Assembly (NCBI GenBank): GCA_963831275.1
Contig: CAWHPN010000004.1
Span: 31,265-95,264, forward strand
Direction of reading: 5' to 3'
Source of the DNA: an uncultured Alphaproteobacteria bacterium
Lineage (GTDB): Bacteria; Pseudomonadota; Alphaproteobacteria; Rhizobiales; Xanthobacteraceae
Length of the DNA stretch: 64,000 nt
Below are positions 3,389-61,536 of this stretch, one piece after another (the stretch's first letter is position 1; each line of letters starts with the position of its first letter). The notes beneath the pieces are model-generated. The model saw only the letters and a program-made list of their open reading frames with translations. It ran no database searches and was not told where the DNA came from. Position numbers and translations under genes: made by a program.

Positions 3389-4007
3389 ATGACTTCAAAT
3401 GTGCATGCTCTCGAGCGGGTGAAGCCGCTGCGTACGGGGCCGGAGCGCCCGGATCGTGCCGAGGTCGAGGCCGCTTTCCGAACCATCATTCAGTGGACCG
3501 GAGACGACCCCGACCGTGACGGCTTGACCGAGAACTCCCGCGCGCGTAGCGCGTGCATTTGAGGAGTTTTTTGTCGGTTACCGTCAGGACCCCGTGGAGA
3601 TCCTGCAAAAGACCTTCGAGGAAATCGAAGGCTATGACGAGATGATTGCGCTAAGGGGCATTCGCTTTGAAAGCCATTGCGAACACCATATGGCGCCTAT
3701 CGTCGGCCAGGCCTGGGTCGCTTACGTCCCGAGCGGACGTGTGGTCGGGGTCAGCAAGCTTGCGCGTGTCGTAGAAGTGTATGCGAAACGTTTGCAGATC
3801 CAGGAAAAGATGACAGCTCAGATCGCAAATACGATCAATGATGTGCTCAAGCCGCAGGGCGTCGGCGTCATCATCAAGGCGTCGCACCACTGCATGACCA
3901 CGCGAGGCGTGCACAAGCCGGATTCGGATCTCGTCACTAGCCGGATGTTGGGCTGCTTCCGGGATAATCCTCTAACCAGGCAGGAATTCCTGAGCATGGC
4001 TGTATGA
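3389..4007 (+). pseudogene. folE: GTP cyclohydrolase I (FolE), frame interrupted by one extra base near 3533-3534
   Basis: ORF 3257..3562 (from M45, MTSNVHALERV...DPDRDGLTE) and ORF 3594..4007 (..[36 protein letters not shown]...) are the two halves of FolE. Removing one A from GAGAACTCC gives [30 protein letters not shown]. The span is 619 nt, which is 3n+1. Confidence 0.85.
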
Positions 4008-4205
4008 CCGGAAGCACGAGAGATAGCTCCACCTGAAGTTTGCTGCCTTAGTCTCCATTCGGCTCGCTGTCCTTCAGATAGCCCTGATTTTTTCTTGGGA
4101 ACGGCCTGATTTTCTGTGTCCGAAAGGCGGCGGGCTGCAGGCAATTCGCGTCAAAAGCACATCCACCTGATATGTTGGATCCGACGAAATTGTCCGGTCC
4201 GACCG

Positions 4206-5120
4206 ATGCTTACGCTCCGTCAAATCGAAGTCATTCGCGCCATCATGGTGACGGGTACCGTTGGCGGCGCGGCGCGGCTGCTCAACGTCTCGTCGCCTGG
4301 CGTCAGTCGGGTCATGAAACACGCGGAAGCGCTGGTCGGGGTCAAACTTTTCAGCCGCAGAGGAGGGCGCTACAGCCCGACACCGCAAGCCAACGCCATT
4401 TTCACGCAGATCAACGGCGTCTACGACAAGGTCGAAGATCTGCAGTTCGTCATTTCCCGGATCAAGCGCGGCTCCAATACAGAACTCAAGATCGGGTCCG
4501 TGCCGAGCATCGCAAACGTCATGGTCCCGCGCGCGATCGCGGATTTGCGAAAGGCGCTGCCCAATCTCATGATTGATGTTGATATTCTGAAAATCGAAGA
4601 TGCGGTCGACTACCTCTTGCTTGGCAAAGGTGAACTGGTGACGCTAAGCGACAAGCTCGATCATCCGATGCTCGCGGTCGAGCCGTTGGCGCGCGGGCAA
4701 CTCAAATGCATTGTGCCGGAAGGTCATCCGCTTTCGCGTCGGACGCGAGTGACGGCAGACGAGATCGTGAAGCACCCATTGATCGGCGTCGATCCGAATG
4801 ATCCCTATGGCCGCATCGTGGCCAATCTTTTCGCGCGCCGCGACCTGCACTACCACGTCACGATTCGTGCCCGGTTCGGATCGACCGTCTGCGCCCTTGT
4901 TTCGCATTGGCTGGGAATCGCGATTGTGGACGAATTCACGCTGGCGGGTGACCAATGGCCCCAAGTCCGCGCACTCGACATCGCCGAACCGACCACGTTC
5001 CAAACCTATATTGCACACCGCAAGGACGTGCCCTTATCGGGCCACGGCGCCCAATTCGTTGCGGCTCTGCGCAGCCAGATGGAAGCGGCAGCGCGCCCGC
5101 GCGGCGTCCGGAGAAAATAA
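4206..5120 (+). CDS. LysR-family transcriptional regulator
   Basis: N-terminal HTH MLTLRQIEVIRAIMVTGTVGGAARLLNVSSPGVSRVMKHAEALVGVKLF followed by a LysR effector-domain length. I chose the ATG at 4206 rather than the track start at 4116. Confidence 0.85.
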   Translation: MLTLRQIEVIRAIMVTGTVGGAARLLNVSSPGVSRVMKHAEALVGVKLFSRRGGRYSPTPQANAIFTQINGVYDKVEDLQFVISRIKRGSNTELKIGSVPSIANVMVPRAIADLRKALPNLMIDVDILKIEDAVDYLLLGKGELVTLSDKLDHPMLAVEPLARGQLKCIVPEGHPLSRRTRVTADEIVKHPLIGVDPNDPYGRIVANLFARRDLHYHVTIRARFGSTVCALVSHWLGIAIVDEFTLAGDQWPQVRALDIAEPTTFQTYIAHRKDVPLSGHGAQFVAALRSQMEAAARPRGVRRK

Positions 5121-5263
5121 CATCATGTTAAGTTTCCCGCACGTTTTGGTTATTGACCTTGTGCGGCCGGATTAGCAAGGTCGTGGCACAGGGCCGGCAA
5201 CAACCTGCTGGCAGAAGCCCGAATTCAACGGGCCCTCATCCTACCAGAAGGAGGGAGCTTCCA

Positions 5264-6406
5264 ATGTATCGTCCAGGACTCTTTGCGTCACTGATGGTGG
5301 CGGGTCTCGGGTTGGCCGGGCCGGTCTTTGCCCAATCCACTGTCTACATTCCCGCCATTCTCGAACTGTCCGGCGCCGGCGCGGTGTCCGGTACCAATTT
5401 CCGCGACGGCACGCTTTTGGCGATTGATGAAATCAATGCCAAAGGCGGGATACTCGGCAAGAAAATCGAGACACCATTGCTCGACACGCAGAGCGACGCG
5501 GGCACGTCACGTGCGCAGGTGCAGAAGGTTCTCGACAACAAGCCATATGTCATTCTCGGTCCGGTATTCTCGGGCTCTGTGCTCGTGGACATGTTGCTCA
5601 CCCAGCAGGCGGAAATCCCGGAGATCGTCGGTGGCGAAGCCGCGGCCATTACACAGAAAGGCAACCCTTACGTATTCCGGACGTCATTCGGCCAGCAATT
5701 CAGTATGCCCAAAATTGCCAATTACATGCGCGATGGCGTCAAGGCGAAGACCGTCGCAGTCTTGTGGGTGAACAATGATTTCGGCAAGGGCGGTCGCGAC
5801 ACTTTCGTAAAGGAGATGAGTGCGCGCGATATCAAGGTGGTTGCCGATATCTCGACCGATTCCGGCCAAGCCGACTTTTCGGCTGATGTGGTCAAGCTCA
5901 AGGCGGCCAATGCCGATGCGATCTTCGTCTATCTTAACGAAGAAGAAAGCGCGCGCTTTCTGCGCGAAGCGAAAAAGCAGGGTATCAACAAGCCGTTGAT
6001 CGGCGAGACGACCTTGCTCGGCCAGAAGGTTATCGATCTTGCGGGTGGTGCTGCTAACGGGGTGCGTGGCCATGTCGGCCTCACTGTCGATGCGCCGATT
6101 CCGGCCGTGCAGGAGTTCGCAGCGAATTTCAAGAAACAATTCAACTATGCTTGCGACCACAACGGCATCAAAGGTTACACGGCCGTCTATTTCATCAAGC
6201 ACGTGACGGAAAAGATCGGGAAATTCGACAGCAAGGCCTTTGCGGAAGCGGCGCACGGCATGACAATTTCTCCCAAGGACCAGCCAGGAATTCTGATGGA
6301 AGCCACCTGGGACAAGAACGGTGATATCGACCGAATCAGCTTTTTGGGCGAGGTGGTCGACGGCAAGCAGAAGATCGTCGAAACGCTGCCAAAGCTCGGC
6401 AAATAA
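5264..6406 (+). CDS. ABC transporter periplasmic substrate-binding protein (HAAT / LivJ-like family)
   Basis: Signal peptide MYRPGLFASLMVAGLGLAGPVFAQ, AGGAGGGAG upstream of the ATG at 5264, and a type I periplasmic binding fold pattern (ELSGAGAVSGTNFRDG..LAIDEINAKGGILGKKIE). Confidence 0.85.
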   Translation: MYRPGLFASLMVAGLGLAGPVFAQSTVYIPAILELSGAGAVSGTNFRDGTLLAIDEINAKGGILGKKIETPLLDTQSDAGTSRAQVQKVLDNKPYVILGPVFSGSVLVDMLLTQQAEIPEIVGGEAAAITQKGNPYVFRTSFGQQFSMPKIANYMRDGVKAKTVAVLWVNNDFGKGGRDTFVKEMSARDIKVVADISTDSGQADFSADVVKLKAANADAIFVYLNEEESARFLREAKKQGINKPLIGETTLLGQKVIDLAGGAANGVRGHVGLTVDAPIPAVQEFAANFKKQFNYACDHNGIKGYTAVYFIKHVTEKIGKFDSKAFAEAAHGMTISPKDQPGILMEATWDKNGDIDRISFLGEVVDGKQKIVETLPKLGK

Positions 6407-6415
6407 TCTTTGAGT

Positions 6416-6445
6416 CTTCCGCCCGGCTGAGTCGCCGGGCGGAAG
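6416..6445 (+). terminator. perfect 12-bp GC-rich stem-loop between the binding-protein gene and the permease genes (attenuator or mRNA stabiliser)
   Basis: CTTCCGCCCGGC (6416-6427) / loop TGAGTC / GCCGGGCGGAAG (6434-6445), 10 nt after the TAA stop at 6404-6406. No U-tract follows. Confidence 0.6.
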
Positions 6446-6460
6446 TTAAAGGCCAACGCC

Positions 6461-7336
6461 ATGGCATCCTTCATCCAGCTTTTGGTGTCTGGTCTCGCAA
6501 CCGGTGCGATCTACGCCCTTATCGCAGTCGGATTCACGCTGCTCTGGCAAACATCGCAGACGATCAATTTTGCGCAAGGCGAATTCGTCATGCTGCCGGC
6601 ATTCTTCGTGCTCGCCGCCATGAATGCCGGTGCGCCATTCTGGTTGGCCGCGCTTATCGGGATCGCACTCTCGATTGTGATCCTGGGAATTCTTTTCAAG
6701 CTCATCGTCGTCGATCCCATGATCCGTTACGGCGTGCTTCCGCTTGTTATCTCCACCATCGCGCTATCGCTATTGCTCAAGGAGAGCGCGAAGGATTTCT
6801 ATAGCTCGCAGGCACAACCGTTTCCTGCGCTCGTGCCGCCGACCGATATTCATATTTTCGATGCGGTCGTCTCGACGCAGAGTCTGTTGGTGCTCGCGGT
6901 CGCCATCCTCACGGTAATTGCTTTACATCTTGTGCTGAACAAGACGCGGATTGGTCGCCAGATGCAGGCAACCGCGCAGAACGCGACATTGGCGCGTATT
7001 CTCGGAATTCCGGTCGAGCGCATGGTGCTGTTCACGTTTCTCCTCAACGCCGTTCTCGTCGCCATCGCGTCGATCCTGATAAGTCCGATTTATCTGGCGA
7101 AATTCACCAACGGCGAGACCTTGGGGATGGCCGCCTTTATTGCGGCCATCATCGGCGGCTTCAATCAGGTGCGCGGCGCCATTTTGGGCGGGGTCATTCT
7201 TGGCGTGCTGGATAATCTTTCCGCCGCCTATGTTTCTTCGCAATATCGCGGGGCTTTTCCGCTCATTATCCTGATTGCGGTCATTCTATTACGTCCTCAG
7301 GGTCTGCTCGGCCGTGTTGAGGAGCGTACGGTATGA
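6461..7336 (+). CDS. branched-chain-amino-acid-type ABC permease (LivH-like)
   Basis: 291 aa, polytopic, typical LivH N-terminus MASFIQLLVSGLATGAIYALIAVGFTL. Confidence 0.9.
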   Translation: MASFIQLLVSGLATGAIYALIAVGFTLLWQTSQTINFAQGEFVMLPAFFVLAAMNAGAPFWLAALIGIALSIVILGILFKLIVVDPMIRYGVLPLVISTIALSLLLKESAKDFYSSQAQPFPALVPPTDIHIFDAVVSTQSLLVLAVAILTVIALHLVLNKTRIGRQMQATAQNATLARILGIPVERMVLFTFLLNAVLVAIASILISPIYLAKFTNGETLGMAAFIAAIIGGFNQVRGAILGGVILGVLDNLSAAYVSSQYRGAFPLIILIAVILLRPQGLLGRVEERTV

Positions 7337-10656: not shown

Positions 10657-10680
10657 CGCCAGCAAACCGGAGAAAAAACC

Positions 10681-12567
10681 ATGAAAACCTCAATTGCCAC
10701 GGTTTGCCTCAGCGGCGGATTGCGCGAAAAGCTGGAAGCGATAGCGGCCGCCGGTTTTCGTGGTGTTGAAATCTTCGAAAGCGATTTGCTGTCTTACAAC
10801 GGCACGCCGACCGATGTTGCAAAGGAGATGTCCGAACTCGGCCTGCGCGCAATTACGTTCCAGCCATTTCGCGATTTTGAAGGGATGCCGGAACCGCAGC
10901 GTCAACGGACGTTCGATCGCGCGGAGCGCAAATTCGACCTGATGCAGGAGCTGGGCTGCAACTCACTTCTGGTGTGCAGCAATGTGTCACCGGAATCCCT
11001 TGGCGGTATTGACCGCAGCGCGGCCGATTTCCACGAACTCGGCGAACGGGCGGCAAAGCGTGGTCTGCGCGTCGGTTTCGAGGCGCTCGCCTGGGGGCGC
11101 CATATCAACGACTACCGCGACGCATGGGAAGTCGTGCGGCGCGCGGACCATCCGGCGATCGGGCTTGTCCTCGACAGTTTCCACACTTACGCCCGTAAGA
11201 CCGATCTCAAACCGTTGCATGCGATCCCGGGCGATCGGATTTTCCTCGTCCAGCTGGCCGATGCGCCGTGGCTCGACATGGACGTGCTGAATTGGAGCCG
11301 GCATTTCCGGTGTTTTCCAGGGCAAGGCGATTTGCCAATTCTCGAATTCATGACCGCCGTCCAGGCGACTGGCTACCAGGGCGACCTGTCACTGGAGATT
11401 TTCAACGATCAATTCCGCGCCGGCTCGCCTCGCTCGGTGGCCATCGATGGGCAGCGATCACTCATCTATCTCATGGATCAGATGCGCGGAAAGAATGGAA
11501 AAATGGCCTCCGAACTTCCAAAAATACCGCCACGGTCAAAATGCCTCGGCGTGGAATTTATCGAATTTGCGGTGGATGACCGCGCCGCCGACGAGCTTGC
11601 GCGGCTTCTTGCCGGTCTCGGATTCCGCAACGTTGCGCGCCACAAATCAAAAGCAGTGTCCCACTGGACTCAAGGCGCGATCAATCTCGTCATCAACAAG
11701 GAAAAAGAAGGGTTCGCGCATTCACATTACATCACGCATGGGCCAACCGTTTGCGCCATCGGCCTCAAGGTCGAAAGCGCATCAGCGACGCTCGACCGCG
11801 CCGAGACGTTGCGTGATACGCCGTTCCGTCAAAAGGTCGGGCCTGGCGAGCTTGAGATCCCGGCCGTGCGCGGAATGGGTGGGAGTCTTCTTTATTTCCT
11901 CGACGCCACCGGCAAGCTGGCCAAGGTCTGGGACGTCGAGTTTGAACCGGTGAAAGGTGACAAAGCGGCCGACATCGGGTTGACCACCGTCGACCATATC
12001 TCACAGTCGATGCACTACGAGGATATGTTGTCGTGGCTGCTGTTCTACACGTCACTTCTCGACGTGCAGAAGACGCCGCAGGTCGATATCACCGATCCCG
12101 GTGGGATTGTGCGGAGTCAGGTTGTGGAGACGACGGACGGCGCGCTGCGGATCGCCCTGAATGCCTCGCAAAGCACGCGCACGCAATCGTCGCGCTTCCT
12201 CAACGAATATTTTGGCTCGGGAGTCCAGCACATCGCCTTTGCCAGCGGCGATATCCTCGGAACAGCCGCCGGGCTGAAGGCAAACGGCATAGAGACGCTG
12301 GCAATTCCGGAAAATTATTACGATGATCTCGCAGCGCGCACCGATCTTGATGCCGCACGGCTGAAGCTGCTCAAGGACAGTAATGTTCTGTATGACAGGG
12401 ATGAGAACGGCGAATACCTTCAACTCTATACCAAGAGTTTCAAGGACCTGTTCTTTCTCGAGATCGTACAGCGGCGTGGATACAAAGGATTTGGCGCTAT
12501 CAACGCACCTATCCGGCTCAACGCACAGTCACGACTTGCAGACGCGTCATCGCTTTCTGGCCAATGA
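10681..12567 (+). CDS. qsuB: fused 3-dehydroshikimate dehydratase (xylose-isomerase-like TIM barrel) / 4-hydroxyphenylpyruvate-dioxygenase-like domain protein
   Basis: 628 aa. The N-terminal half is sugar-phosphate isomerase/epimerase-like (MKTSIATVCLSG.L..KLEAIAAAGF.GVEIFE). The C-terminal half is VOC/HPPD-like (GVQHIAFASGDI, FLEIVQRRGYKGFG). This architecture matches QsuB/QuiC1-type enzymes. Confidence 0.8.
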   Translation: MKTSIATVCLSGGLREKLEAIAAAGFRGVEIFESDLLSYNGTPTDVAKEMSELGLRAITFQPFRDFEGMPEPQRQRTFDRAERKFDLMQELGCNSLLVCSNVSPESLGGIDRSAADFHELGERAAKRGLRVGFEALAWGRHINDYRDAWEVVRRADHPAIGLVLDSFHTYARKTDLKPLHAIPGDRIFLVQLADAPWLDMDVLNWSRHFRCFPGQGDLPILEFMTAVQATGYQGDLSLEIFNDQFRAGSPRSVAIDGQRSLIYLMDQMRGKNGKMASELPKIPPRSKCLGVEFIEFAVDDRAADELARLLAGLGFRNVARHKSKAVSHWTQGAINLVINKEKEGFAHSHYITHGPTVCAIGLKVESASATLDRAETLRDTPFRQKVGPGELEIPAVRGMGGSLLYFLDATGKLAKVWDVEFEPVKGDKAADIGLTTVDHISQSMHYEDMLSWLLFYTSLLDVQKTPQVDITDPGGIVRSQVVETTDGALRIALNASQSTRTQSSRFLNEYFGSGVQHIAFASGDILGTAAGLKANGIETLAIPENYYDDLAARTDLDAARLKLLKDSNVLYDRDENGEYLQLYTKSFKDLFFLEIVQRRGYKGFGAINAPIRLNAQSRLADASSLSGQ

Positions 12568-15831: not shown

Positions 15832-15853
15832 GAATCCGCAGAATCGCAGAATC
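15832..15853. promoter_or_regulatory. three tandem GANTC (GAATC) sites at 9- and 8-bp spacing upstream of the giant repeat-protein gene
   Basis: GAATCCGCAGAATCGCAGAATC, with GAATC at 15832, 15841 and 15849. It lies about 310 nt upstream of the ATG at 16165. Confidence 0.4.
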
Positions 15854-16164
15854 AATGAGTGGTTTGCATTTCGGTTACTAGGGTGCGCGCTTCAGCTTCG
15901 GCGCCGATGCGCGCGAGACGTCGACCTCCATCATGTCCATCACGACAGTGAAAAGGCTTCACGCGCTTTAGCGTGGCGCAACACGTGTTGGCGCACAATT
16001 TCGGCTTAACCGAAAACACAATTGACCACGATCAACCGATGATCCGTCCTCTGATCAGTGGACGCTTGCGAAGCGGAAACCTGTCAAAAAGTTCCCCGCA
16101 ATTCTACGTCGTCGTCGCGCGAAGGTGCGCGAAGTTGTTGGTGAGTTTGTCGGAGGCAAAGCGT

Positions 16165-19100
16165 ATGAACGAACGGATCATCATCTCTCAGATCGCCAAT
16201 CTCGCCCAAACCCGCGATGTCAAAGTTACCAAGCCTCCAGTTGATCAATCGCTCATTCTCGACCTGACCAGCGGCGCAAAACTCGGTCTTTCTGCGGGTG
16301 CCCAATTCGCGCAGGTTCCTTCGATTTCAGAAGACCCTTCGGGTCTGCCTAAGGCGGACGATATTCCCCCCAGCGGCGCCGACTTCCACGATGTCACGAT
16401 CGGCCGTCTCGGCGGCGGACTGGCGGCGCTGCCCTTACTGGCTCCTGAAGATCCTTCAGGCCACGCGGTCTTCTCTGTCGATCATTCGGCTATCAAACAT
16501 GCCAACGCAGTATCGCCGGTGCCTTCCGTCACGATTCCGGCGCCTGGTGGGCCGGCGACTGTCGTCTTCGAAGCGGGGCTTCTGGCCTCACGCGGGCCTG
16601 GCGAGTCGGCAGGGTCGCATCCCGGGCAGCCATCGTTTCCCACCACGACCCGGGCGGGAACAATCAGCTTCAATTCACCCGATGGCTTGCAGTCCGTCTT
16701 CCTGGGCGGTCACCAACTGACCACGTCAGCGCAGACATTTGCAGATGGAACAATCGGATCGTTGACGGCGTCGTACACGTTCAACACGGCAACGGGCAAA
16801 GGCACGATCAGTTACAGCTACACGCTGCTTGATAATACCCTGAGCGCTCCAAACACGAGTTTCGCCGTTGTGGTGACTGACAGGGACGGCCACAACAACC
16901 CGCCTGCCAACCTCGTCATCAATATCGTGGACGACGCGCCGATTGCTCGTGCGGATTCTGATGGTCTCACGTCGGGACTGACCACGGCAGTCGGCAACGT
17001 GCTCGATGGTTCGGGCACAACATCAGGTCCGGCCGGCACGGATGTTCGAGGCGCGGACGGCGGTGTGACGGTCGTGAGCATTGCATCGGGAGCCACGATA
17101 AAAGCCGTGGATCCGATCAACGGTGTGACGATCCAGGGCACGTCCGGCACGCTGACAATCAGCGCGACCGGCGCCTACACTTATACGCATACGCTTGGCG
17201 GCGGCGCGGATGTGTTCACCTACACGATCCGGGATGCAGACGGCTCGCTGTCGCACACGACATTGACCATAAACCTCAATGACTCCGCGCCGACCAACAT
17301 TGTGATTCCGCAGCCGGGCGGACTGGATACGCAGGTGTTCGAGGCGGGGCTTGCGGCCGCGCGCGGGCCTGGCGAGTCGGCCGGCTCGCATCCGGGGCAG
17401 CCTTCATTCCCGACCAGCACGCAAACCGGCGCCGTCACTTTCATCTCGGTGGACGGAGTCTCGAAGATCGAACTGGGCGGCAATGTGGTGACGGCCACAT
17501 CGGCGCAGACGGCGCAGACATTTGCCGACGGGACACGGGGACAACTGTCGGCGTGGTTTGAATACAACTCGGCGACCGGGGCCGGCGCGATCCATTACAC
17601 ATACAGGCTGCTCGATAACACGTTGGGTAATCCACTGGTAAACAATGGAGACACCAGTGCGAGTTTTGCGGTAGCGGTGACCGATGCTGATGGCGACCGC
17701 ACGGCAGGCGGCAATCTGATCATCAATATCGTCGACGACAAGCCGGCGGCGAATCCCGACCACGACAACGTTGTGGCAGGCCAGACCGCCGCCGAGGCCG
17801 GCAATGTGCTCGGCGGTTCAGGTACGGTGGAGGGGACCACGAACGCCGACGTTGCTGGCGCGGACGGCGGGCTGTCGGTGGTGGGTGTCGTGTCGAACAA
17901 CACCAACACCGTGGGCACTGTGGGGATGGGTCTGCACGGCGCCTTCGGTACACTGACGATCGATGCGGGTGGCAATTACAGCTATGTCCGCGACACCGGC
18001 GTGGCTGGTGGGCCCAACCACAACGACACATTCACCTACACGGTAAAGGATGCCGACGGTTCGCAATCGACCGCGACACTGACGATTGCAGTAGCGGACT
18101 CCACGCCCAGCAACCTCCACATTCCGGTTGGCGGCGATGCGGGCACGCAGGTGTTCGAGGCAGGGCTTCCGGCCGCGCGCGGGCCTGGCGAGTCGGCCGG
18201 CTCGGATCCGGCTGCAGCAACCGCAACGACAGGGTCGATCACCTTCACCTCGGTCGACGGGGTTGGCTCGATCAAATTGGTCGATAGCAATAACAACACG
18301 ATTACGGTCGATAGCCAGTCGCGGACGTTCATCGATCCCAATGGCGTGTACTCGCTGGCGGCGTCGTACACGATCGATGCGGCGGGGAATGGCACGATCA
18401 CTTACACCTATACGCTGCTCGACAATACCAATGCGCAGGTGAACCCGAACACAACCTTTGCGGTGACGGTGACCGACAAGGACGGGGAGTCGACCAGCGG
18501 CACGCTCGTGATCGCCGTCCAGGACGACGGACCCGCGGCCAATTTGGACAGCAATACAGTTTTAGCGGGGCAGACAACGGCCAGCGGCACTGTGCTTGGC
18601 AACGACGTCCTCGGTGCTGACGGAGCGCCTGTCAGCGGTGCGGTGGTGAGCGTTGTGTCGAACAACACCAACACCGTTGGCACGGTTGGGGCAGTGCTGC
18701 AGGGCGGCTTTGGTACGCTGACGCTTTTTGCCGATGGCACCTACAGTTATGTGCGCGACCAGAATACGCCGGGGAACGTCAGCGACGTGTTCACCTATAC
18801 GATTAAGGATGCCGACGGCACCACCTCGGCGCCTGTGACGCTGACCATCAACATCGGCGATTCGGTGCCAACCAACCTCCATATTCCACAGCCAGGCGAT
18901 GCGGGTACGCAGGTGTTCGAGGCAGGGCTTCCAGCCGCGCGCGGGCCTGGCGAGTCGGCAGGCTCCAATCCGGCCGCAGCAACCGCAACGACGGGATCGA
19001 TCACGTTCACCTCGGTCGACGGGGTCGGCTCGATCAAGTTGGTCGATAGCAATAACAACACGATTACGCTCGACACCCAGTCGCGGACGTTCATCGATCC

Positions 19101-22100
19101 CAATGGCGTGTACTCGCTGGCGGCGTCGTACACGATCGATGCGGCGGGGAATGGCACGATCACGTACACCTATACGCTGCTCGACAATACCGATGCGCAG
19201 GTGAACCCGAATACAAGCTTTGCGGTCACGGTGACCGACAAGGACGGAGAATCAACGAACGGCACACTGGTCATCGCTATCCAGGACGACAAGCCGGTCG
19301 CAAATGCGGACCATGACAACGTTGCGGCCGGCCAGGCCACCGCCGAGACCGGTAGTGTGCTTGACGGCACAGGCACCGTTGAAGGCACCACGAACGCCGA
19401 CATTTCGGGTGCGGATGGCGGTGTATCTGTTGTGGGCATTGTATCAAACAATACCAACACCGTCGGCACGGTGGGGACGGCGCTACACGGCGCTTTCGGC
19501 ACACTGACCATCGACGCGGGTGGCCATTACAGCTATGTGCGCGACACCGGCGTGGCCGGTGGACCAAATAACAATGACACCTTCACCTACACGGTAAAGG
19601 ACAGCGACGGCTCGCAATCGACCGCGACGCTGACGATCGCGGTGGCAGACTCGGCGCCGGCAGACATTGCAGTGCCCGGCCCCGACCGCGGCGAGACGAC
19701 GGTGTTCGAGGCGGGGCTACCGGCGCGTCCCGGCGAGCCGGCGGGCTCCAATCCGGTGGCGCCAGTCACGACCGACGAAGGTATCATCAGTTTCACCTCG
19801 CTCGACGGGGTATCGAAAATCGAGCTGGGCGGCCTTGCGCTTACGGCCCCCGACACGGAGCAGAGCGTCTCCGACGCGACCGGAACACTGACGGCGTTTT
19901 ACACCTACGATGCCACAACCGGTCTGGGTGAGATTCATTATCATTACACCCTAATCGACAACACCGTTGGCGATCCGTCGAGCGTGAGCTTTGCGGTGGC
20001 GGTGACCGATGCCGATGGCGACCGCGCTACCGGTAACGATCTCGTCATCAATATCGTTGACGACCAGCCGACGGCACAATCGGATGTCGATGTTGTCGTT
20101 GCTGGGCAGACCACGCCTGAAACCGGCAACGTGCTCGATGGTTCGGGCACGGCGTCGGGCGACTTAGGCGCGGATGTGCTGGGCGCGGACGGTGCGACGC
20201 TGGTGGGTATTGCGGCAGGAGACAGCAACGGGAACCCGGTCAGTGGGGGTGTGGGTACGCAGATCCAAGGCGACCACGGAATACTGACCATCGATGCCCA
20301 AGGCAATTACAGTTACACGCGCACCGGCGGCAGCGGCGTCGACGTCTTCAGCTACACAATCCAGGACGGCGACGGTGATGTATCGACCGCGACACTCGCC
20401 ATCACCATCGGCGATTCGGTACCGACCGGTCTCCACATTCCCCAGCCGGGTGATGCGGGAACCCAGGTGTCCGAGGCAGGGCTTTTGGCTTCACGCGGAG
20501 CTGGCGAGTCAGCCGGTTCGGACGCCGGCAACCCGGATGGCCAGGCGCCGACCGCGACCACCGGCACGGTCACCTTTAACTCGGCGGACGGAATTGGCAC
20601 GATCAAGTTGATCGACAATAACAATCCCAACAACACGATCACGCTCGACAGTGGCAACCCGTCGCAGACATTCATCGACCCCAATGGCGTGTACTCGCTG
20701 CAGGCGTCGTACACGATCGATGCGGCCGGGAACGGGACGATCACTTACACGTATACGCTGCTCGACAATACCGATGCGCGGATCACCCCCAATGCAAGCT
20801 TCGCGGTGACGGTGACTGACCCGGATGGTGATTCGACGAGCGGCGCGTTGGCAATTGCCATCCACGATGACTTACCGACGGCCGTTGCGGACGCCAATAC
20901 CGTCGCTGCCGGGCAGACTACGGCCAGCGGCACAGTTCTTGCGAACGACGTTTTTGGTGCAGACGGGAAGTTACCCAATGATGCGGTGGTGAGCGTTGTA
21001 TCGAACAACACCAGCGCAATCGGCACCGTCGGGACGGGGCTACATGGTGCCTTCGGTACCCTGACGCTTTCCGCTGATGGCACTTACAACTATGTGCGGG
21101 ACGGAAATAGCCCGGGCGGCGTCACCGACGTATTTACATATACGATTAAGGACACGGATGGTTCGTTGGCACAGAATACGCTGAGCGTCACGCTCGCCGA
21201 CTCGACGCCGTCTATAGCCCTAAGCGGGCCGGCGGGAACAGTGTTTGAGGCTGGGCTTCCAGCAGGCTCGCATGCGGGAAATCCGTCTTTCGGAATCACA
21301 GCGTCTGACACGATCATCTTCAGTTCACTGGATGGGGTGCGGTCGGTGTCGCTGGCCGGGCATGTGCTCAATGCCGACGGCACGGCGCAGACTATTGCTG
21401 ACGGGACGATGGGGTCACTGACGGCGTTCTATACGTTCGATACCGCCACACACAGCGGCGCCATTCATTTCGATTATCATCTTCTCCAAAGCACGCCAGG
21501 TTTTCCAAGCACAAGCTTCGCGATCGCGGTGACCGATCTTGATAACGATAGCAACTCGTCCTCCTTCCTTACGATCAATATCGAGGACGATGTGCCCGCT
21601 GCTCGTAACGATGATGTCGCCCTTGCAGTGGTCCAAGGTACGGCAAGTGGTAATGTCATGACGGGTCTCGGCACGGTAGATGGACTGAACGGGATTGGCG
21701 CGGATACGCAGGGCGCGGACGGCGCGCATGTGTTTGGCGTCGCCTCGGGTGTCAGGACCGCCGCCGTCGTCGGAGGTGTAGGTGCAGTGATCGGGGGGAC
21801 GATCGCGAGCACGTCGCTGATTCTGAACCCGGATGGCAGCTTTACTTTCAACGGTAGCGGCTTGCCGCAGGGTGGCTTCGAATTTTTCACCTATACGATC
21901 CGGGATGGCGATGGTCAGCTTTCGACTGCGATCATAACTTTCACACGAGATGACGGTGGCAACATCGTTAGCGAGTTGTCGTCCAGCTCTATCGATGCTA
22001 GTCAGTCGGATCTAGGAGGAGGTGCGGCCGCCAACCATTTCCTCTTGAACGCGCCGAGTGAAGGCGGTTCGCATATCCTCGACTTCAAGCACGGCATCGA

Positions 22101-22350
22101 CTTGATCGACGTCCTGCTTGCCGGGTTCGCGGGTCTTTCCGGAAAGGGCGCGGTGGCCAGCTCGGATTTCGTCGCTAGCAACAATGCTGCGACGGCCAAT
22201 CTGGGCGCGGCTCACTTTGCCTACAATGCGTCGAATGGGCAGCTGTTCTACGACAGCAATGGCGGCGACGCTTCCGGCGCGAGCAGGATGCTTCTGGCCA
22301 TTCTGGATAACCACACTGCGCTCGCCGCGACAGACATTCATAAGGTTTGA
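16165..22350 (+). CDS. giant repeat protein (~2,060 aa), type I secretion substrate / adhesin-like
   Basis: ATG at 16165 with GGAGG 8 nt upstream. Seven tandem modules of 254-272 aa. C-terminal ...NHFLLNAPSEGGSHILDFKHGIDLIDVLL...GQLFYDSNGGD..GASRMLLAILDNH fits the T1SS C-terminal target domain. A dedicated T1SS operon lies next door. Confidence 0.85.
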   Translation: MNERIIISQIANLAQTRDVKVTKPPVDQSLILDLTSGAKLGLSAGAQFAQVPSISEDPSGLPKADDIPPSGADFHDVTIGRLGGGLAALPLLAPEDPSGHAVFSVDHSAIKHANAVSPVPSVTIPAPGGPATVVFEAGLLASRGPGESAGSHPGQPSFPTTTRAGTISFNSPDGLQSVFLGGHQLTTSAQTFADGTIGSLTASYTFNTATGKGTISYSYTLLDNTLSAPNTSFAVVVTDRDGHNNPPANLVINIVDDAPIARADSDGLTSGLTTAVGNVLDGSGTTSGPAGTDVRGADGGVTVVSIASGATIKAVDPINGVTIQGTSGTLTISATGAYTYTHTLGGGADVFTYTIRDADGSLSHTTLTINLNDSAPTNIVIPQPGGLDTQVFEAGLAAARGPGESAGSHPGQPSFPTSTQTGAVTFISVDGVSKIELGGNVVTATSAQTAQTFADGTRGQLSAWFEYNSATGAGAIHYTYRLLDNTLGNPLVNNGDTSASFAVAVTDADGDRTAGGNLIINIVDDKPAANPDHDNVVAGQTAAEAGNVLGGSGTVEGTTNADVAGADGGLSVVGVVSNNTNTVGTVGMGLHGAFGTLTIDAGGNYSYVRDTGVAGGPNHNDTFTYTVKDADGSQSTATLTIAVADSTPSNLHIPVGGDAGTQVFEAGLPAARGPGESAGSDPAAATATTGSITFTSVDGVGSIKLVDSNNNTITVDSQSRTFIDPNGVYSLAASYTIDAAGNGTITYTYTLLDNTNAQVNPNTTFAVTVTDKDGESTSGTLVIAVQDDGPAANLDSNTVLAGQTTASGTVLGNDVLGADGAPVSGAVVSVVSNNTNTVGTVGAVLQGGFGTLTLFADGTYSYVRDQNTPGNVSDVFTYTIKDADGTTSAPVTLTINIGDSVPTNLHIPQPGDAGTQVFEAGLPAARGPGESAGSNPAAATATTGSITFTSVDGVGSIKLVDSNNNTITLDTQSRTFIDPNGVYSLAASYTIDAAGNGTITYTYTLLDNTDAQVNPNTSFAVTVTDKDGESTNGTLVIAIQDDKPVANADHDNVAAGQATAETGSVLDGTGTVEGTTNADISGADGGVSVVGIVSNNTNTVGTVGTALHGAFGTLTIDAGGHYSYVRDTGVAGGPNNNDTFTYTVKDSDGSQSTATLTIAVADSAPADIAVPGPDRGETTVFEAGLPARPGEPAGSNPVAPVTTDEGIISFTSLDGVSKIELGGLALTAPDTEQSVSDATGTLTAFYTYDATTGLGEIHYHYTLIDNTVGDPSSVSFAVAVTDADGDRATGNDLVINIVDDQPTAQSDVDVVVAGQTTPETGNVLDGSGTASGDLGADVLGADGATLVGIAAGDSNGNPVSGGVGTQIQGDHGILTIDAQGNYSYTRTGGSGVDVFSYTIQDGDGDVSTATLAITIGDSVPTGLHIPQPGDAGTQVSEAGLLASRGAGESAGSDAGNPDGQAPTATTGTVTFNSADGIGTIKLIDNNNPNNTITLDSGNPSQTFIDPNGVYSLQASYTIDAAGNGTITYTYTLLDNTDARITPNASFAVTVTDPDGDSTSGALAIAIHDDLPTAVADANTVAAGQTTASGTVLANDVFGADGKLPNDAVVSVVSNNTSAIGTVGTGLHGAFGTLTLSADGTYNYVRDGNSPGGVTDVFTYTIKDTDGSLAQNTLSVTLADSTPSIALSGPAGTVFEAGLPAGSHAGNPSFGITASDTIIFSSLDGVRSVSLAGHVLNADGTAQTIADGTMGSLTAFYTFDTATHSGAIHFDYHLLQSTPGFPSTSFAIAVTDLDNDSNSSSFLTINIEDDVPAARNDDVALAVVQGTASGNVMTGLGTVDGLNGIGADTQGADGAHVFGVASGVRTAAVVGGVGAVIGGTIASTSLILNPDGSFTFNGSGLPQGGFEFFTYTIRDGDGQLSTAIITFTRDDGGNIVSELSSSSIDASQSDLGGGAAANHFLLNAPSEGGSHILDFKHGIDLIDVLLAGFAGLSGKGAVASSDFVASNNAATANLGAAHFAYNASNGQLFYDSNGGDASGASRMLLAILDNHTALAATDIHKV
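16561..21960 (+). repeat. seven tandem coding modules (762-816 nt period)
   Basis: The V(F/S)EAGL motif recurs at 16564, 17335, 18151, 18913, 19702, 20467 and 21241. Each module has an A half (VFEAGL..GES..-...F.S.DG......-TF.D..G.L.A.Y-Y.YTL.DNT-SFAV.VTD.DG) and a B half (AGQT...G.VL-GADG-..V..-G.FGTL.....G.Y.Y-D.FTYT..D.DGS.S...L.I...DS.P). Confidence 0.85.
22000..22347 (+). other. C-terminal type I secretion target domain of the giant protein (VC_A0849-like subclass, non-RTX)
   Basis: GGGAAANHFLLNAPSEGGSHILDFKHGIDLIDVLLAGF... I saw no run of canonical GGxGxDxUx nonapeptides. Confidence 0.6.
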
Positions 22351-22372
22351 GGGTTGTCTGCAAGATGCCTTC

Positions 22373-22484
22373 ACCTCTCCCATAGGGAGAGGTCGCCCGC
22401 CGAGGGCGGGCGGCTGAGGGGTTACAGCCTATCGATGGTCACTTACCCCCTCACCCCAACCCTCTCCCCAACGGAGAGAGGGAG
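22373..22484. repeat. REP-like palindromic intergenic element (three GC-rich hairpins)
   Basis: ACCTCTCCC-ATA-GGGAGAGGT (22373-22393), CGCCCGCC-GAG-GGCGGGCG (22394-22412), and an imperfect CCCTCTC...GAGAGGG (22460-22482). The region translates to the LTPTLSP..RG-type artefact ORF at 22354..22557. Confidence 0.5.
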
Positions 22485-22510
22485 CAGGCCGGACATGACG
22501 GCGGTTGCAC

Positions 22511-23762
22511 CTACCTCTCCCTTAGCGCCTCATCCCGCAGCATGCGCGCTGGCTTGAGCATGTAGTCGAGCACGGTTTTCTTGCCGGTCAGGACTTCCAC
22601 CGTCGCCACCATCCCCGGAAGAATCGGCAGCGGATGCTCGTCGGTGCCGAGATGGTTTTTCTCGGTGCGCACCATCACGCGATAGAACGTTTCGCCTTTT
22701 TCGCCGCGGTCTGGTCTTTCATCGGCAAGGGTGTCGGCGCTGATCCGTTCGACCTTGCCCTCGAGCGATCCGAACACCGATGAATTCATAGGCCGAGAGC
22801 TTCACAAACGCGCCCTGCTGCGGGCGGATGAATGCGATGTCCTGTGGCCGGATGCGGCCCTCCACGAGCAGCGTGTCGTCCAGCGGCACGATATCCATCA
22901 TGTTGCCGCCCGGCGGCACGACAGCGCCGACGGTGGTGACATTGAGCCTGTTGACGACGCCGTTCACCGGCGCGCGCAGTTCGGCGCGGCGCACGCGATC
23001 CTGCGCCGATTTGATGGTCTGATCGAGCACAGCGAGATCGCCGCGAGATTTGGCAAGATCCTCTTCCGCCTGCGAGCGGAAGGCCGCCCTGATGTTATCG
23101 ATGCGCGACTGCACCTCGGCAATCTGGCCGCGCGTCTCCGTGACCTTCTGGTCGAGCTGAAGCATTTCGATTTCGGGAACAATCTTCTGGACATAGAGCT
23201 TGCGCGTCAATTCGACCTGGCGGTCGACAAGCTTGAGCGACTCGGTCAGCCGGATCTGCTGCTGCGCCAGAACGTCGACGTCATTGTCGAGCTTTTTACG
23301 CCTTGCCGCGAAAACGCTGCGTTCGGTTTCGATCGACTGCGGCGCGACTTTGCCAAGCTCTTCGGCGAATTCAGGCCGTTCGCGGCTTTGCACCTCGGCT
23401 TCCAGGCGGGCAACACGCGCGGCATTTGCGGCGCGACGCTCGCGCACTTCGCCGAACTCGGAAGCAAACCGGGTGTCGTCGATTTTCATCAGGACCTGTC
23501 CCTGCTGCACGATCGCGCCTTCGTGCACCAGGATTTCCCGCACAATGCCGCCCTCAAGGCTTTGCAGCACCTGCGTTTGTCGCGAGGACACAACGCGTCC
23601 GTTGCCGCGCTTGACTTCGTCGAGTTCGGCGAAATGCGCCCAGGTCAGGCCGGCTGCCAGCAACGCGATGATCGATGCAAGGAGCATGCGCGACGTGCGT
23701 GGCGTGCGAAGCTCCGATGCGGCCCGGATATCGTTGGCGAAGGCAAAATCAGACTGCTGCAT
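22511..23762 (-). pseudogene. HlyD-family T1SS periplasmic adaptor, frame interrupted by one extra base in GAATTC at 22782-22787
   Basis: ORF 22719..23762 (MQQSDFAFANDIR...KLSAYEF) and ORF 22511..22789 (..SSVFGSLEGKVERISADTL...LTGKKTVLDYMLKPA) are the two parts of one adaptor. The span is 1252 nt, which is 3n+1. Confidence 0.85.
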
Positions 23763-25941
23763 GTTTTTCCGCCGGGGCCTGCGGTTGGAACACCGGGCCG
23801 CGTCCGGCAGCCTGCAGCCGCACGATGATCTGGTCGCGCGGTCCGTCGGCGATCAGCTGGCCCCGCTCGAAGACGAGCAGGCGATCGACCAGCGTCAGTA
23901 GCGACATGCGGTGGGTGGAGACGATGACCGTCGTGTCACCCTGAGCCAGCAGCTTCAGACGGTCGAGAAATTCAATTTCGCTGCGCGTGTCGAAATGCGC
24001 CGTCGGTTCGTCGAGAAAGAGAATCTTCGGCTTGCGGATCAGAGCCCGGGCAAGCCCGATTGCCTGTTTTTGCCCCCCCGACAGGCTGCGGCCACCTTCC
24101 GCGATTGGCAGATCGTAGCCAAACGGATGGTTGGCCGCGAACTGCTCGACACCGGACAGCCGCGCGGCTTCGAGAATCTGCTCGTCGGTCGCGGAGGGTA
24201 ACCCAAGCGCGATGTTGTCGCGCAGCCGGCCGAAGATCAGGTCGATATCCTGCAGGACGAAACCGACGCCGCGCCGCAGGTCCGCCGGGTCGTATTGGCG
24301 CAGGTCAACGCCCTCGATCAGAATGCAGCCTTCATCGGGATCGTAGAGCCCTGAAAGCAAGCGGCCGACGGTGGTTTTGCCCGACCCGATCCGTCCGATG
24401 ACGCCGACGCGCTCGCCCGGCGCAATCGAAAACGAAACCTTGTCGAGGGCGTTCATGGCCGCATTGGGATATTTGAACCGCACATTGTCGAATACGATCG
24501 CGCCGTGCCTGATCTGGCGCGCCAGATAGGCGCGGAGCGGCGGGCGCTCGCGTTCGAGCGACATCAAATTGTCGATCGATCGCAGCGACCGGAAAGTCTG
24601 CGTGGCGCGGGTAATCACCGACGCAATGCCCGAAATGGGCGCCAATACGCGGCCCGCCAGCATGTTTGCCGCGATCAGGGCGCCCATGGAGATCTGCCCG
24701 TCCAGAATCAGAAACACGCCAATGACGATCATCAGCAGGCTGGTGATCTGCTGCGCCGTGCCGGCCAGCGTCAGCGACAGCATCGACCAGAATTGGACGT
24801 CCTCACTGGAGCGCGCCGCCGCTGCAACCGATTTTTCCCACAGACTCTGCATGCGGGCTTCGGCGCCGGCGGCCCGCACGGTTTCGATGGAAGACAGCGA
24901 TTCGACGAGCACGCCGTGGCGGGCACTCGATTGCGCCTCCAGCCGTTTGACCGCGCGATGCAGCGGAGGCTGTAGCCCAAGGCCGGTCACGATCATGATC
25001 GGCAGGATCACGACTGGAATCCAGGCCAGCGGTCCCGCAATCAGAAACAGCACGGCGATGAAAAGAAGAGCAAACAGAAGGTCAGTCGCCGCTACGACGG
25101 TGCCGGACGTGAAAAACTCGCGCACCGAGTCGAAGTCGCGCATCTGATTGGCCAGCACGCCGACGGACGCCGGCCGTTGCGCCATCTTGATGGACAAGAC
25201 ATGCTCGAAAATGTCGGCGGCAAGAACGACGTCGAGCTTCTTGCCGGTCATGTCGATGATGCGTGCCCGGACGGTGCGCAAAACGAAATCGAAGGCAATG
25301 GCAAGACCGAGACCAATCGAGAGAGCAATGAGTGAGGGGACAGCGCCGTTCGGTATCACGCGGTCATAGACGTTCATCATGAACAGCGGCGCGGCGAGCG
25401 CGAGCACGTTGACGATGAATGCCGCGATGGCGACATGGATGTAGTTTGTCCAGAATCTGCGAACGACGCCCCAGAACCAGTGCGGCTGCGCCATGTCCTC
25501 TGCTGCCGTTCGTTCGCTCGCGCCGGCAGCCGGCCGGACGAAAAAGGCATGGCCCGCATAATTCGACTCGAACGCGGTGACGTCCGTGCGGATTTCCTCG
25601 CGGGTGGATGGGTCGATAACAGTCAGCCTTTTGCCGCGCTTGTCGATTTTGGTCAGGATGCGAGCCGATTGATCCTGCAACAGCAGCACGGCCGGAAGTA
25701 CGAGCGCCGGAATATCGCCAAGCGCCCGTTCGACTAGCTCAGCCTCCAGGCCGGCGCGCCGGGCCGCGCGATCGAACAGCGCGATCGAGAGTCGATCCTG
25801 CTCGAGCGGAAGTCCGGATAGCAAAGCTTCACGGGTGATCGCGCGGCCGTGAAACGCGGCTATGTAAAGGAGGGCGTCGGAAAGCTGGTCAGACCCTTCT
25901 CGATTTTCCACAACGCCAACTCGCACCGGGACATTCGCCAT
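23749..25941 (-). CDS. T1SS ABC transporter permease/ATPase with N-terminal C39-like (non-catalytic) domain
   Basis: Walker A GRIGSGKTT, signature LSGGQKQAIGLARAL, Walker B ILFLDEPTAHFD. The N-terminal domain DALLYIAAFHGRAITREALLSGLP has no Cys at the C39 position. I chose the ATG at 25941, which shares a base with the tolC stop (TGATG). Confidence 0.9.
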   Translation of the reverse strand: MANVPVRVGVVENREGSDQLSDALLYIAAFHGRAITREALLSGLPLEQDRLSIALFDRAARRAGLEAELVERALGDIPALVLPAVLLLQDQSARILTKIDKRGKRLTVIDPSTREEIRTDVTAFESNYAGHAFFVRPAAGASERTAAEDMAQPHWFWGVVRRFWTNYIHVAIAAFIVNVLALAAPLFMMNVYDRVIPNGAVPSLIALSIGLGLAIAFDFVLRTVRARIIDMTGKKLDVVLAADIFEHVLSIKMAQRPASVGVLANQMRDFDSVREFFTSGTVVAATDLLFALLFIAVLFLIAGPLAWIPVVILPIMIVTGLGLQPPLHRAVKRLEAQSSARHGVLVESLSSIETVRAAGAEARMQSLWEKSVAAAARSSEDVQFWSMLSLTLAGTAQQITSLLMIVIGVFLILDGQISMGALIAANMLAGRVLAPISGIASVITRATQTFRSLRSIDNLMSLERERPPLRAYLARQIRHGAIVFDNVRFKYPNAAMNALDKVSFSIAPGERVGVIGRIGSGKTTVGRLLSGLYDPDEGCILIEGVDLRQYDPADLRRGVGFVLQDIDLIFGRLRDNIALGLPSATDEQILEAARLSGVEQFAANHPFGYDLPIAEGGRSLSGGQKQAIGLARALIRKPKILFLDEPTAHFDTRSEIEFLDRLKLLAQGDTTVIVSTHRMSLLTLVDRLLVFERGQLIADGPRDQIIVRLQAAGRGPVFQPQAPAEKHAAV

Positions 25942-27467
25942 CAGTTTTGTGGCCCGGCGGCAGTAAGTGCCTTCGTCGCAGTCGTTGAGGGGACCAGGGT
26001 CCAATCCGGCCAGCGCTGCTCGAACGTCAACGGTTGCTGATCGGTACCATTCTGCCAACCAGTCAAATTCAACGGCTCAAATTCCGACTGTGGGAGGCTG
26101 AGGATAATCGGTGGAAATTTTGTTGGCAGAGCGCCCAACGGGATGGTGTCGAGCGGTGCGGCGTCGACCGGTGTTGCGGTCTTGAGATAATCGAGCAGGG
26201 AGCCCATCGCGGCCAGCAGCTGATAGTCGGCAAAGACAATCACGCCTCGGGCAGAGGTCAAGGACGCGGCAGCATTAAAATATTGATTTTCGGCGTTCAG
26301 TAAGTCAATCAGCGAACGCCGACCGATCTCGTATTCCTTGCGGTAAATGGCAATGGTCTTTTTGTCTGCGGCAAGCTGGCGTTGCAACGCCACGATCCGG
26401 TTCGCCGTGAGTGTTCTGGCTGACCACGCTTTATCAACCAGCTCGAAGGCGTCGCGCTGCAAACGGGCATGACGCATTGTTTGTTCGGTGTAGCGTTCCG
26501 CCATCTCGGCGCGGCGCCAACTATCCTGACCGCCACGGAAAATATCCCAGGAGACAACGATTTTGCCGGAGACATCATCTCGCTTGCCAATAAAAGTATC
26601 GGCATCGACGCTATGTGACGCTCGGCCCTCCAGTGCCACGCTGGGGACAAACGCGCCATCGGTGACACGAAAAGCCTCTCGTGCTGCTTCTCTGTCGTAG
26701 TTTGCCGCAAGAAGAGTGGGATTGCGTTGGAGGGTGACGGACAGAGCCTCACCCTTGGATCGGGGGAGGCCTCGCAGAGACGCGGGGAAACTCAGCCTGG
26801 CTGCATCAAGCCCGATAATTTTTCGGTATTTCGCGGACGCGTCGTCAAGACTGTGCCGGAAGTCGGCAAGCGTCGCCTTCGCCGCTTCCACGCGCTCGAG
26901 CGCTTGCTGCAGATCGCCTTCGCCTGCGCGGCCGCCCGAGAATCGCGATTGTACGTTCGAGAACAGCTCCTCATGATTCGCAATGTTCTGACGCGCAAGT
27001 GCAACGAGGCGCAGATAGCGCACAACGTCCATATAGGCTTCCGCCGCATCGAGCGCGATCAGCTCCGATCGTTCGCGAACCCGGTATGATGCAGCATTAA
27101 CCCGCGCGGATTGCCGCCAGATATCGTGGATCGATGCAAAGCCATCAAACAAGACCTGTCGGACAACCACCGACACCGCTCGGCCGGGCAGCCACTTGCC
27201 ATTATCAAGGGGTGAGGGCGTGATCTGCTGATCAAATTTTTCGGGGCCCATGCGCGATTCGAGCCGCAGCTGCGGCAGCAAGGTGCCTTGGGCCTGGCGA
27301 AGCTCGGCTTCTGTGGCGCGCCGATTAGCGGAAGCCTCACCCACGCCAGGATTTGTCAGAACGGCTTGCGAAATCGCGTCGTTGATCGAAAACGATGCAG
27401 CCCGAGCGTCGCTCCATACCACGGTGGCGAGCAAAATAACGGCGGCGTTGCGCAATGGAAACTGCAT
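25941..27467 (-). CDS. TolC-family outer-membrane channel of the T1SS
   Basis: 508 aa, signal peptide MQFPLRNAAVILLATVVWSDARA, then SINDAISQAVLTNPGVGEASANRRATEAELRQAQG.LLPQL, typical of TolC-type T1SS proteins. Confidence 0.85.
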   Translation of the reverse strand: MQFPLRNAAVILLATVVWSDARAASFSINDAISQAVLTNPGVGEASANRRATEAELRQAQGTLLPQLRLESRMGPEKFDQQITPSPLDNGKWLPGRAVSVVVRQVLFDGFASIHDIWRQSARVNAASYRVRERSELIALDAAEAYMDVVRYLRLVALARQNIANHEELFSNVQSRFSGGRAGEGDLQQALERVEAAKATLADFRHSLDDASAKYRKIIGLDAARLSFPASLRGLPRSKGEALSVTLQRNPTLLAANYDREAAREAFRVTDGAFVPSVALEGRASHSVDADTFIGKRDDVSGKIVVSWDIFRGGQDSWRRAEMAERYTEQTMRHARLQRDAFELVDKAWSARTLTANRIVALQRQLAADKKTIAIYRKEYEIGRRSLIDLLNAENQYFNAAASLTSARGVIVFADYQLLAAMGSLLDYLKTATPVDAAPLDTIPLGALPTKFPPIILSLPQSEFEPLNLTGWQNGTDQQPLTFEQRWPDWTLVPSTTATKALTAAGPQN

Positions 27468-27735
27468 TCAACCCCTGGTTATAAACCGTCCGAGCATATG
27501 TCGCTGTAAGCACAGTGAAAGTCGCAATAAACATCATAAAATATATAGTTAAGATTTTAATAAATAGTTACTTACACGTATAAGTAGAAACGATTTTGGA
27601 GAGTTGGGACGCATGTCGGCAGCCGCTGCATTGCGAGGCGAGCCGTGCTATCGGCGGGGGATGCCGGACCGATCTGGCGTGAGGCGGCCTTCTGCGACCG
27701 CGTCCGCTTCGGTGTCCTGCTGTTAAGCCGTGCTG

Positions 27736-28699
27736 TTACGGCTTGATATCGAACTCGCGTGCGAACTTTGTGTAGGTGTTTTTCTGATCGGACAGGAATT
27801 TTCCGAATTCCATCCCGCAGAACACATTGACGTACATTCCCTGGCTCTTGAGCCTGTCTGCAACGGCTTCTGACTTGACCGCGTCGGATATATATTGGGA
27901 AAGCTGGGCCAACGTTTCTTTTGGCGTCTTGGCTGGCGCAACAAAGCCGAACCACACGGCGGCATCCAGATCATTGAACCCGTTTTCGGCCAAAGTCGGT
28001 ACGTTCGGCAACGCCTCTGTGCGTTTCTTTGCAGGCACCGCAATCGGCCGCAATGCGCCTGCTTCAATCTGCCCCTTGAGATCGGAAAAATTTGCCATCA
28101 CGGCGGTGATCGTTCCCGCAAGCGTCGCATTCATTGCCGGTGGCGAACCGGGATACGGAACGTAGGTAATATCGACCTTCGCATCGCGTTTTAGCAGTTC
28201 GCCCGCGATGTGAATGATGGAAGCTGGCCCGGTACCACCGTAAGTCACCGTGCCAGGCCTTTCCTTTGCACGTTTCAGATAATCGGCGAGCGTCTGGATG
28301 TCGGATTTGCTGCTCACGGCCAGTACCGCAGGCGTCGCCGCGACATAGCAAAGCGGTTCAAAACTGCTGATGGGATCGTAGTGGCCCGGAAAAAGGATTG
28401 GACTCAGGATAAAGGGGTTCTCAGCCAGCAGAATTGTCGTGCCGTCTGGCGTCGCACGCGCGGCGAAATCGCTTCCCACGATAGAGCTTGCACCGGGGCG
28501 GTCTTCGACGACGATCGATTGGCCGGTCTTCTGCGTGATAGCCTGAACTCAGGACGCGCGTGACCACATCGCCGGTCCCGCCTGCGGCATAGGGAACAAC
28601 GATCCTGAGTGTCTTGCCCGAGACACCTTGCGCAAGCGCCGGCTGGGCGATCCAGCTGAGCGAAACAAGTATGCAAAAGCCGACAAATCTGGTGAGCAT
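27736..28699 (-). pseudogene. Bug/TctC-family tripartite tricarboxylate-type substrate-binding protein, frame interrupted by one extra base at 28545-28550
   Basis: N-terminus MLTRFVGFCILVSLSWIAQPALAQGVSGKTLRIVVPYAAGGTGDVVTRVLS comes from the 3' part of ORF 28421..29134. It continues as QAITQKTGQSIVVEDRPGASSIVGSDFAARATPDG... (ORF 27736..28479) after one base is removed. The span is 964 nt, which is 3n+1. Confidence 0.8.
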
Positions 28700-61533: not shown

Positions 61534-61536
61534 CGG

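Follow-up and report, generated by a model that had tools for sequence, protein, structure and literature searches.

Three GANTC-linked frameshifts in an alphaproteobacterial metagenome contig are very probably long-read consensus errors

Results and discussion

In a 64-kb stretch of contig CAWHPN010000004.1, from an uncultured alphaproteobacterium (hereafter the window, meaning the whole stretch of 64,000 nucleotides that was analyzed), the genes folE, hlyD and tctC each appear to be split by a single-base frameshift that falls in an expanded copy of the motif GANTC. CcrM, a methyltransferase of Alphaproteobacteria, has GANTC as its target. The three frameshifts are very probably consensus errors that arose at the N6-methyladenine (m6A) of GANTC in a metagenome assembly built from long reads only, of the nanopore type, and all three genes are almost certainly intact in the organism. 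The broken genes reflect the quality of the data and are not a real biological feature. The loci concerned, with lengths in nucleotides (nt), are the following.

3389..4007, plus strand: folE (GTP cyclohydrolase I), 619 nt; frameshift judged false, duplicated A at 3533/3534
22511..23762, minus strand: hlyD-type type I secretion adaptor, 1252 nt; frameshift judged false, one extra base in GAATTC at 22782-22787
27736..28699, minus strand: tctC/Bug-family periplasmic binding protein, 964 nt; frameshift judged false, duplicated A at 28546/28547

Removal of one base restores each gene

An initial annotation of this DNA had placed a GANTC expanded to six bases in each of the three genes, and the hexamers are indeed found there: read on the plus strand, they are GAACTC at 3532-3537 in folE, GAATTC at 22782-22787 in hlyD and GAACTC at 28545-28550 in tctC. 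The same annotation had remarked that all three spans are 3n+1 nt long, as the lengths of 619, 1252 and 964 nt bear out, and that removing one base would mend each gene and leave a GANTC behind. Deleting a single base from each hexamer does yield full-length products, namely a FolE of 205 amino acids (aa), an HlyD of 416 aa and a TctC of 320 aa, with true starts at 3389 for folE and 28699 for tctC. Each repaired protein matches its family uninterrupted, in a single stretch that spans the junction: FolE matches TIGR00063/PF01227 over residues 27-203, HlyD matches TIGR01843 over residues 22-416, and TctC matches PF03401 over residues 46-311. Judged by these family-model matches, none of the three repaired genes carries a secondary lesion.

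The site left after repair is GACTC in folE and, on the coding strand, GATTC in hlyD and GAGTC in tctC. The true tctC site is therefore GACTC when read on the plus strand, and that of hlyD is GAATC on the plus strand and GATTC on the coding strand, within TAT GAT TCA (Y-D-S). HlyD homologues read AY-D-SSVFG here, and 10 of 10 have Asp at the site residue, which makes GAT the true codon and GATTC the true coding-strand site. In all three genes, the extra base amounts to a second copy of the adenine targeted by CcrM. The change from GA to GAA falls on the plus strand in folE and tctC and on the coding (minus) strand in hlyD.

No further frameshifted genes were found in the window by means of a tiling map of open reading frames (ORFs) together with Pfam. 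A more general search, in which the doubled base was deleted at every GAANTC or GANTTC and fused ORFs were sought, proved too noisy, as off-frame ORFs are long at 57% G+C.

Independent assemblies lack the extra bases

Assemblies for comparison were found by exact-protein look-ups and represent the same or a nearly identical genome. Several window ORFs found no match in these look-ups, probably because of start-codon or substitution differences. The longest comparison is with contig_1658 (691 kb) of ENA assembly ERZ25039564, which is 99.8-99.96% identical to the window over four aligned blocks; shorter contigs come from Logan assemblies of runs ERR11593393, ERR11596054 and ERR11594401.

Each of the three insertions is missing from at least one independent assembly. 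For folE, contig L003 from ERR11593393 reads GACTC, and the missing A is its sole difference from the window in 1963 bp, while contig L002 from ERR11596054 terminates 3 nt short of the site. No GTDB representative genome matched a pattern across the folE site that allowed both versions. For tctC, both contig_1658 and contig_6423 of ERZ25039569 (96% identity) read GAG-TC, and an intact 320-aa gene is called in both; more distant relatives (88% identical) read AGC-CAG at this point, in frame and without a GANTC. For hlyD, contig L005 from ERR11593393 has a site one base shorter and encodes an intact 416-aa HlyD (P0001). L005 has AAT (Asn) where the homologues have GAT (Asp), which is a G-to-A error at the same hlyD GATTC. 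The initial annotation had named confirmation of the extra base by independent data as the outcome that would tell against its reading; the result is the opposite at all three sites.

Taken together, the three ERR11593393 contigs (6081 bp total) depart from the window at five positions and no others, all of them derived from GANTC. They carry the same allele as the window at 58107 and hold an 8963-bp segment without counterpart in contig_1658. It follows that these contigs stem from the strain of the window itself, so the intact copies cannot be put down to some other strain. The lesions do not reproduce in independent sequence of the same strain, as those of genuine pseudogenes would.

Two positions unconnected with GANTC also separate the assemblies. 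At 58107, the window differs from three of them (L006, L007 and L008) and agrees with ERR11593393, and at 58642 it differs from two (L006 and L008). Both are likely true strain single-nucleotide polymorphisms (SNPs), and they help to place the window in the ERR11593393 strain.

The 8963-bp block occupies 18255-27216 of the window and is found in L005 of ERR11593393 and not in contig_1658 of ERZ25039564. It spans the C-terminal two thirds of a 2125-aa Big_9 adhesin, hlyD, an ABC exporter and most of a TolC-like OEP gene, and its junction is without real microhomology. Either the whole type I secretion/adhesin system has been deleted at the strain level, or the assembly has collapsed at this point.

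Differences between assemblies concentrate at GANTC

The alignment of the window with contig_1658 covers 48,053 bases and shows 53 differences. Twenty-two of these fall on a GANTC or no more than 1 nt away from one, a category that takes in 1.6% of positions (45-fold enrichment, binomial P ~5e-26). The GANTC-linked substitutions are nearly all G to A at the G, or C to T at the C, of the motif, and they run in both directions. A C-to-T change at the C of GANTC is the G-to-A change read from the other strand. Fifteen sites are GANTC in the window and AANTC or GANTT in contig_1658; in the reverse direction, the window is the altered sequence at 11337, 30952, 33538 and 51465. The errors of the window beyond the three genes, and the genes affected in the sister assembly, are as follows.

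11337..11341, plus strand: substitution-type window error, AATTC; GATTC in the other assembly
30952 (AATTC), 33534-33538 (GATTT) and 51465 (AACTC): substitution-type window errors of the same kind
50379-50383: substitution-type window error, AACTC; GAACTC in contig_1658
16143..16147, plus strand: fourth GANTC-linked indel, GAGT-T; GAGTCT in contig_1658, the C of GAGTC being lost at 16146/16147
10681-12567 (site 11667) and 49439-52567 (site 50378): genes intact in the window and falsely broken in the sister ENA assembly (ENA loci L004 and L006)

The deletion at 16146/16147 falls between genes, 17 nt before the adhesin ATG (16163) and beside a GGAGG ribosome-binding site, and breaks no gene. The initial annotation had counted three GANTC-linked lesions in all. 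Those three stand, and the tally itself was an undercount, given this fourth indel and at least five window GANTC sites with substitution-type errors. In contig_1658, a change of TGG to TGA at 11667, within GGACTC, splits a 628-aa ORF into pieces of 328 and 230 aa, and duplication of an A at 50378 (GAACTC, versus AACTC in the window) splits a 1042-aa dCache-PAS-GGDEF-EAL gene into pieces of 328 and 669 aa. Every indel difference between the two assemblies lies at a GANTC, except for an extra G at 54819 in contig_1658. Overall, two otherwise ~99.9% identical assemblies disagree at about one-fifth of the GANTC sites compared, a level of discordance that mutation could not produce and that a motif-specific reading error can.

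The window, with a G+C content of 57.4%, contains 154 copies of GANTC, versus ~239 expected from base composition. This under-representation fits a CcrM-bearing alphaproteobacterium, and miscalled sites may explain part of the deficit. The 154 copies agree with the earlier remark that intact GANTC occurs elsewhere in the window, and they include a compact group:

15832..15853, plus strand: three intact GAATC in 22 nt, upstream of the adhesin gene

The survival of this trio indicates that most GANTC sites are called correctly. As an observation apart, the trio (GAATCCGCAGAATCGCAGAATC) lies ~310 nt upstream of the adhesin start codon at 16163, and the region 15832-15853 could take part in methylation-sensitive regulation of the adhesin and type I secretion locus.

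A reading error at methylated adenine

The initial annotation had offered two explanations, and the first of them, a systematic long-read error at methylated sites, is borne out both by the absence of the extra bases elsewhere and by a pile-up at GANTC that bears the published signature. Under this explanation, the modified G-m6A dinucleotide would give an ambiguous signal. A basecaller or polisher might resolve it as A-A, which would appear as a G-to-A substitution, or as G-A-A, which would appear as a duplicated adenine, the class that breaks folE, hlyD and tctC. Occasionally, G-m6A might be resolved with a base dropped, as at 16146. That the error enters at basecalling or polishing is something we infer.

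Methylation of GANTC in the host is suggested by the error pattern, by the under-representation of GANTC and by genes of alphaproteobacterial character: the closest named homologues of HlyD and TctC belong to Pseudolabrys, Afipia and Xanthobacteraceae metagenome-assembled genomes (MAGs), at 75-83% identity, which marks the host as an alphaproteobacterium. A 691-kb metagenome contig, the Flye-style name contig_1658 and the error signature itself all point to a nanopore platform. Our guess is that the accessions belong to the nanopore soil project described in PMC12313526, which used Flye and one round of Medaka 1.8.0.

Methylation-induced ambiguity in nanopore R10.4.1 data has a minimal shared motif, RA/TY, with A/G confusion directly 5' of adenine (Lohde et al. 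2024, PMC11610573), and G2A and C2T predominate among the substitutions that R10.4.1 assemblies show at modified sites, whatever the polisher (Liu et al. 2024, PMC11610603). The substitutions that separate the window from contig_1658 match this signature exactly, and the insertions fit the same cause. As in those reports, the errors fall at a methyltransferase motif, take the form of G to A and C to T beside the methylated adenine, and hit a subset of motif copies that differs between assemblies of the same genome. The errors reported there are substitutions, whereas those in the window include four indels, of which three duplicate the methylated A and one drops a base, and it is indels, not substitutions, that give rise to false pseudogenes.

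GANTC-associated nanopore assembly errors have also been described in agrobacteria (PMC12710330) and Brucella (PMC12392509), where the motif and the bacterial class are those of the present case and CcrM methylation is likewise held responsible. Those cases concern isolate genomes that were checked against Illumina or Sanger references and held few errors per genome, whereas the present one is a metagenome assembly without a reference, in which errors seem frequent per site (two assemblies disagree at ~20% of the GANTC sites compared). Three features by which nanopore methylation errors are recognized were found here: concentration at a motif, substitutions of the RA/TY type and errors that are not reproduced in other assemblies. 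The error phenomenon is already known as a class, and its insertion flavor, duplication of the methylated A, is a technical nuance.

Several points weigh against a nanopore methylation error. Platform and pipeline are deduced, and metadata do not confirm them. No ccrM gene lies within the 64-kb window; the only methyltransferase ORF in the window (1058-1813) is PrmA/MTS-like and not an N6-adenine DNA methylase. The extra A of folE is common to the window and contig_1658, which fits a recurrent systematic error or shared reads and would also fit a real allele. The Logan contigs carry GANTC-type errors of their own and are thus probably nanopore-derived, not demonstrable short-read data. Finally, an explicit account of methylated-A insertion was not found in the cited methylation-error papers, which describe substitutions.

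Alternative explanations

The second explanation in the initial annotation was that GANTC is a genuine indel hotspot, at which the methylated adenine would promote single-base duplication during replication or repair, so that folE, hlyD and tctC would be real and recent pseudogenes. That the methylated A is the base duplicated in all three insertions speaks for such a process, as does the presence of the folE insertion in two long-read assemblies. However, contigs of the same strain lack the insertions, and the discordance at one-fifth of GANTC sites runs both ways between 99.9% identical assemblies and includes a nonsense codon and a frameshift, which would call for an implausible mutation rate. 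Folate synthesis, moreover, normally requires folE, and no second lesion accompanies the frameshift in any of the three genes. Genuine single-base frameshift pseudogenes do look much like these loci, in that two adjacent ORFs in different frames jointly match one protein family, but the loci described here differ from them in having a frameshift that same-strain assemblies do not reproduce, in the lack of further lesions and in falling, all of them, at one methylation motif. With independent assemblies free of the extra bases, the hotspot goes unsupported, and we consider it very unlikely.

A mixed population, in which intact and frameshifted alleles coexist and the assembler chose the frameshifted one, is likewise highly improbable. 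Real strain variation does occur nearby, as shown by 14 non-GANTC substitutions at 53970-54851 and by the presence or absence of the 8963-bp segment, and contig L002 of ERR11596054 ends 3 nt before the folE site, as it might at a branch in the assembly graph. However, heterogeneous basecalls at a methylated site would be expected to produce such a branch just as readily, and strain variation does not predict that all indel differences but the one at 54819 should lie at GANTC.

What little likelihood the hotspot and mixed-allele explanations retain lies mainly at folE, whose insertion is shared by two long-read assemblies. We give very little credence to the proposition that methylated-A duplication, at least at folE, reflects a genuine mutational process linked to CcrM or genuine heterogeneity of the population; if it were true, CcrM-linked duplication would transiently inactivate genes in Alphaproteobacteria. 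A weaker novelty, but a likelier one than a biological process, is that m6A duplication constitutes an under-described indel class of nanopore polishing. If so, it would inflate pseudogene counts in public alphaproteobacterial MAGs, and a methylation motif would be readable from assembly discrepancies alone.

A programmed frameshift or phase-variable tract was considered and excluded, as the sites (GAACTC, GAATTC and GAACTC) contain no slippery or repetitive tract and no run of more than two identical bases.

Coincidence has a negligible chance of being the explanation: GANNTC is common in the window (320 copies), but an indel with a 9-nt placement tolerance would meet one of the 178 doubled-base sites (GAANTC or GANTTC) in 64 kb with P ~0.02 per gene, giving P ~1e-5 for three of three, and the enrichment of GANTC among assembly differences speaks against chance as well. 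The link of the three frameshifts to GANTC, which the initial annotation had already held not to be chance, is real, chance being excluded statistically.

Other features of the window

The 14 substitutions at 53970-54851 that separate the window from contig_1658 fall within 900 bp, inside a FAD_binding_2 gene (53724-55220, minus strand). At most of them the window has A/T and the ENA contig G/C, and GANTC sites are not involved. The patch has the look of true divergence or recombination, or else of a mixed-strain consensus. The extra G at 54819 breaks the ENA contig's copy of this FAD_binding_2 gene.

A LysR-type ORF of 106 aa (46395-46715, minus strand) comprises a helix-turn-helix and linker helix, and no substrate-binding domain follows it in any frame seen. 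This ORF, the only other oddity that the tiling map and Pfam brought up, may be what remains of a truly truncated gene and is unconnected with GANTC. Two small ORFs, at 45034-45273 on the plus strand and 45529-45822 on the minus strand, have similar C-terminal sequences and are candidate PilZ-like proteins, a likeness judged by eye only. Two cNMP-binding/Crp-type regulators flank the pair, and a large GGDEF-EAL protein is encoded nearby.

The end of the window, 55452-64000, holds an ordinary hopanoid biosynthesis cluster, to judge by Pfam families on the gene calls of the matching ENA contig. Its content includes a glycosyltransferase, two SQS_PSY genes, an amine oxidase, a squalene-hopene cyclase and a radical SAM/DUF3463 gene; LytB and DXP synthase are found just past the window end.

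Significance

Long-read-only alphaproteobacterial MAGs in ENA and NCBI may hold false frameshifts, stop codons and amino-acid changes at a sizeable fraction of their GANTC sites. Errors of this kind distort pseudogene counts, pangenome and SNP analyses, and studies of GANTC motif distribution. They can be screened for without raw data, by flagging frameshifts that are mended by removal of one base from a GAANTC or GANTTC, and by flagging AANTC or GANTT where relatives have GANTC. The main value of the finding lies in annotation hygiene for public long-read MAGs. For the organism itself, the frameshifts have no biological significance, and folE, hlyD and tctC are to be treated as intact.

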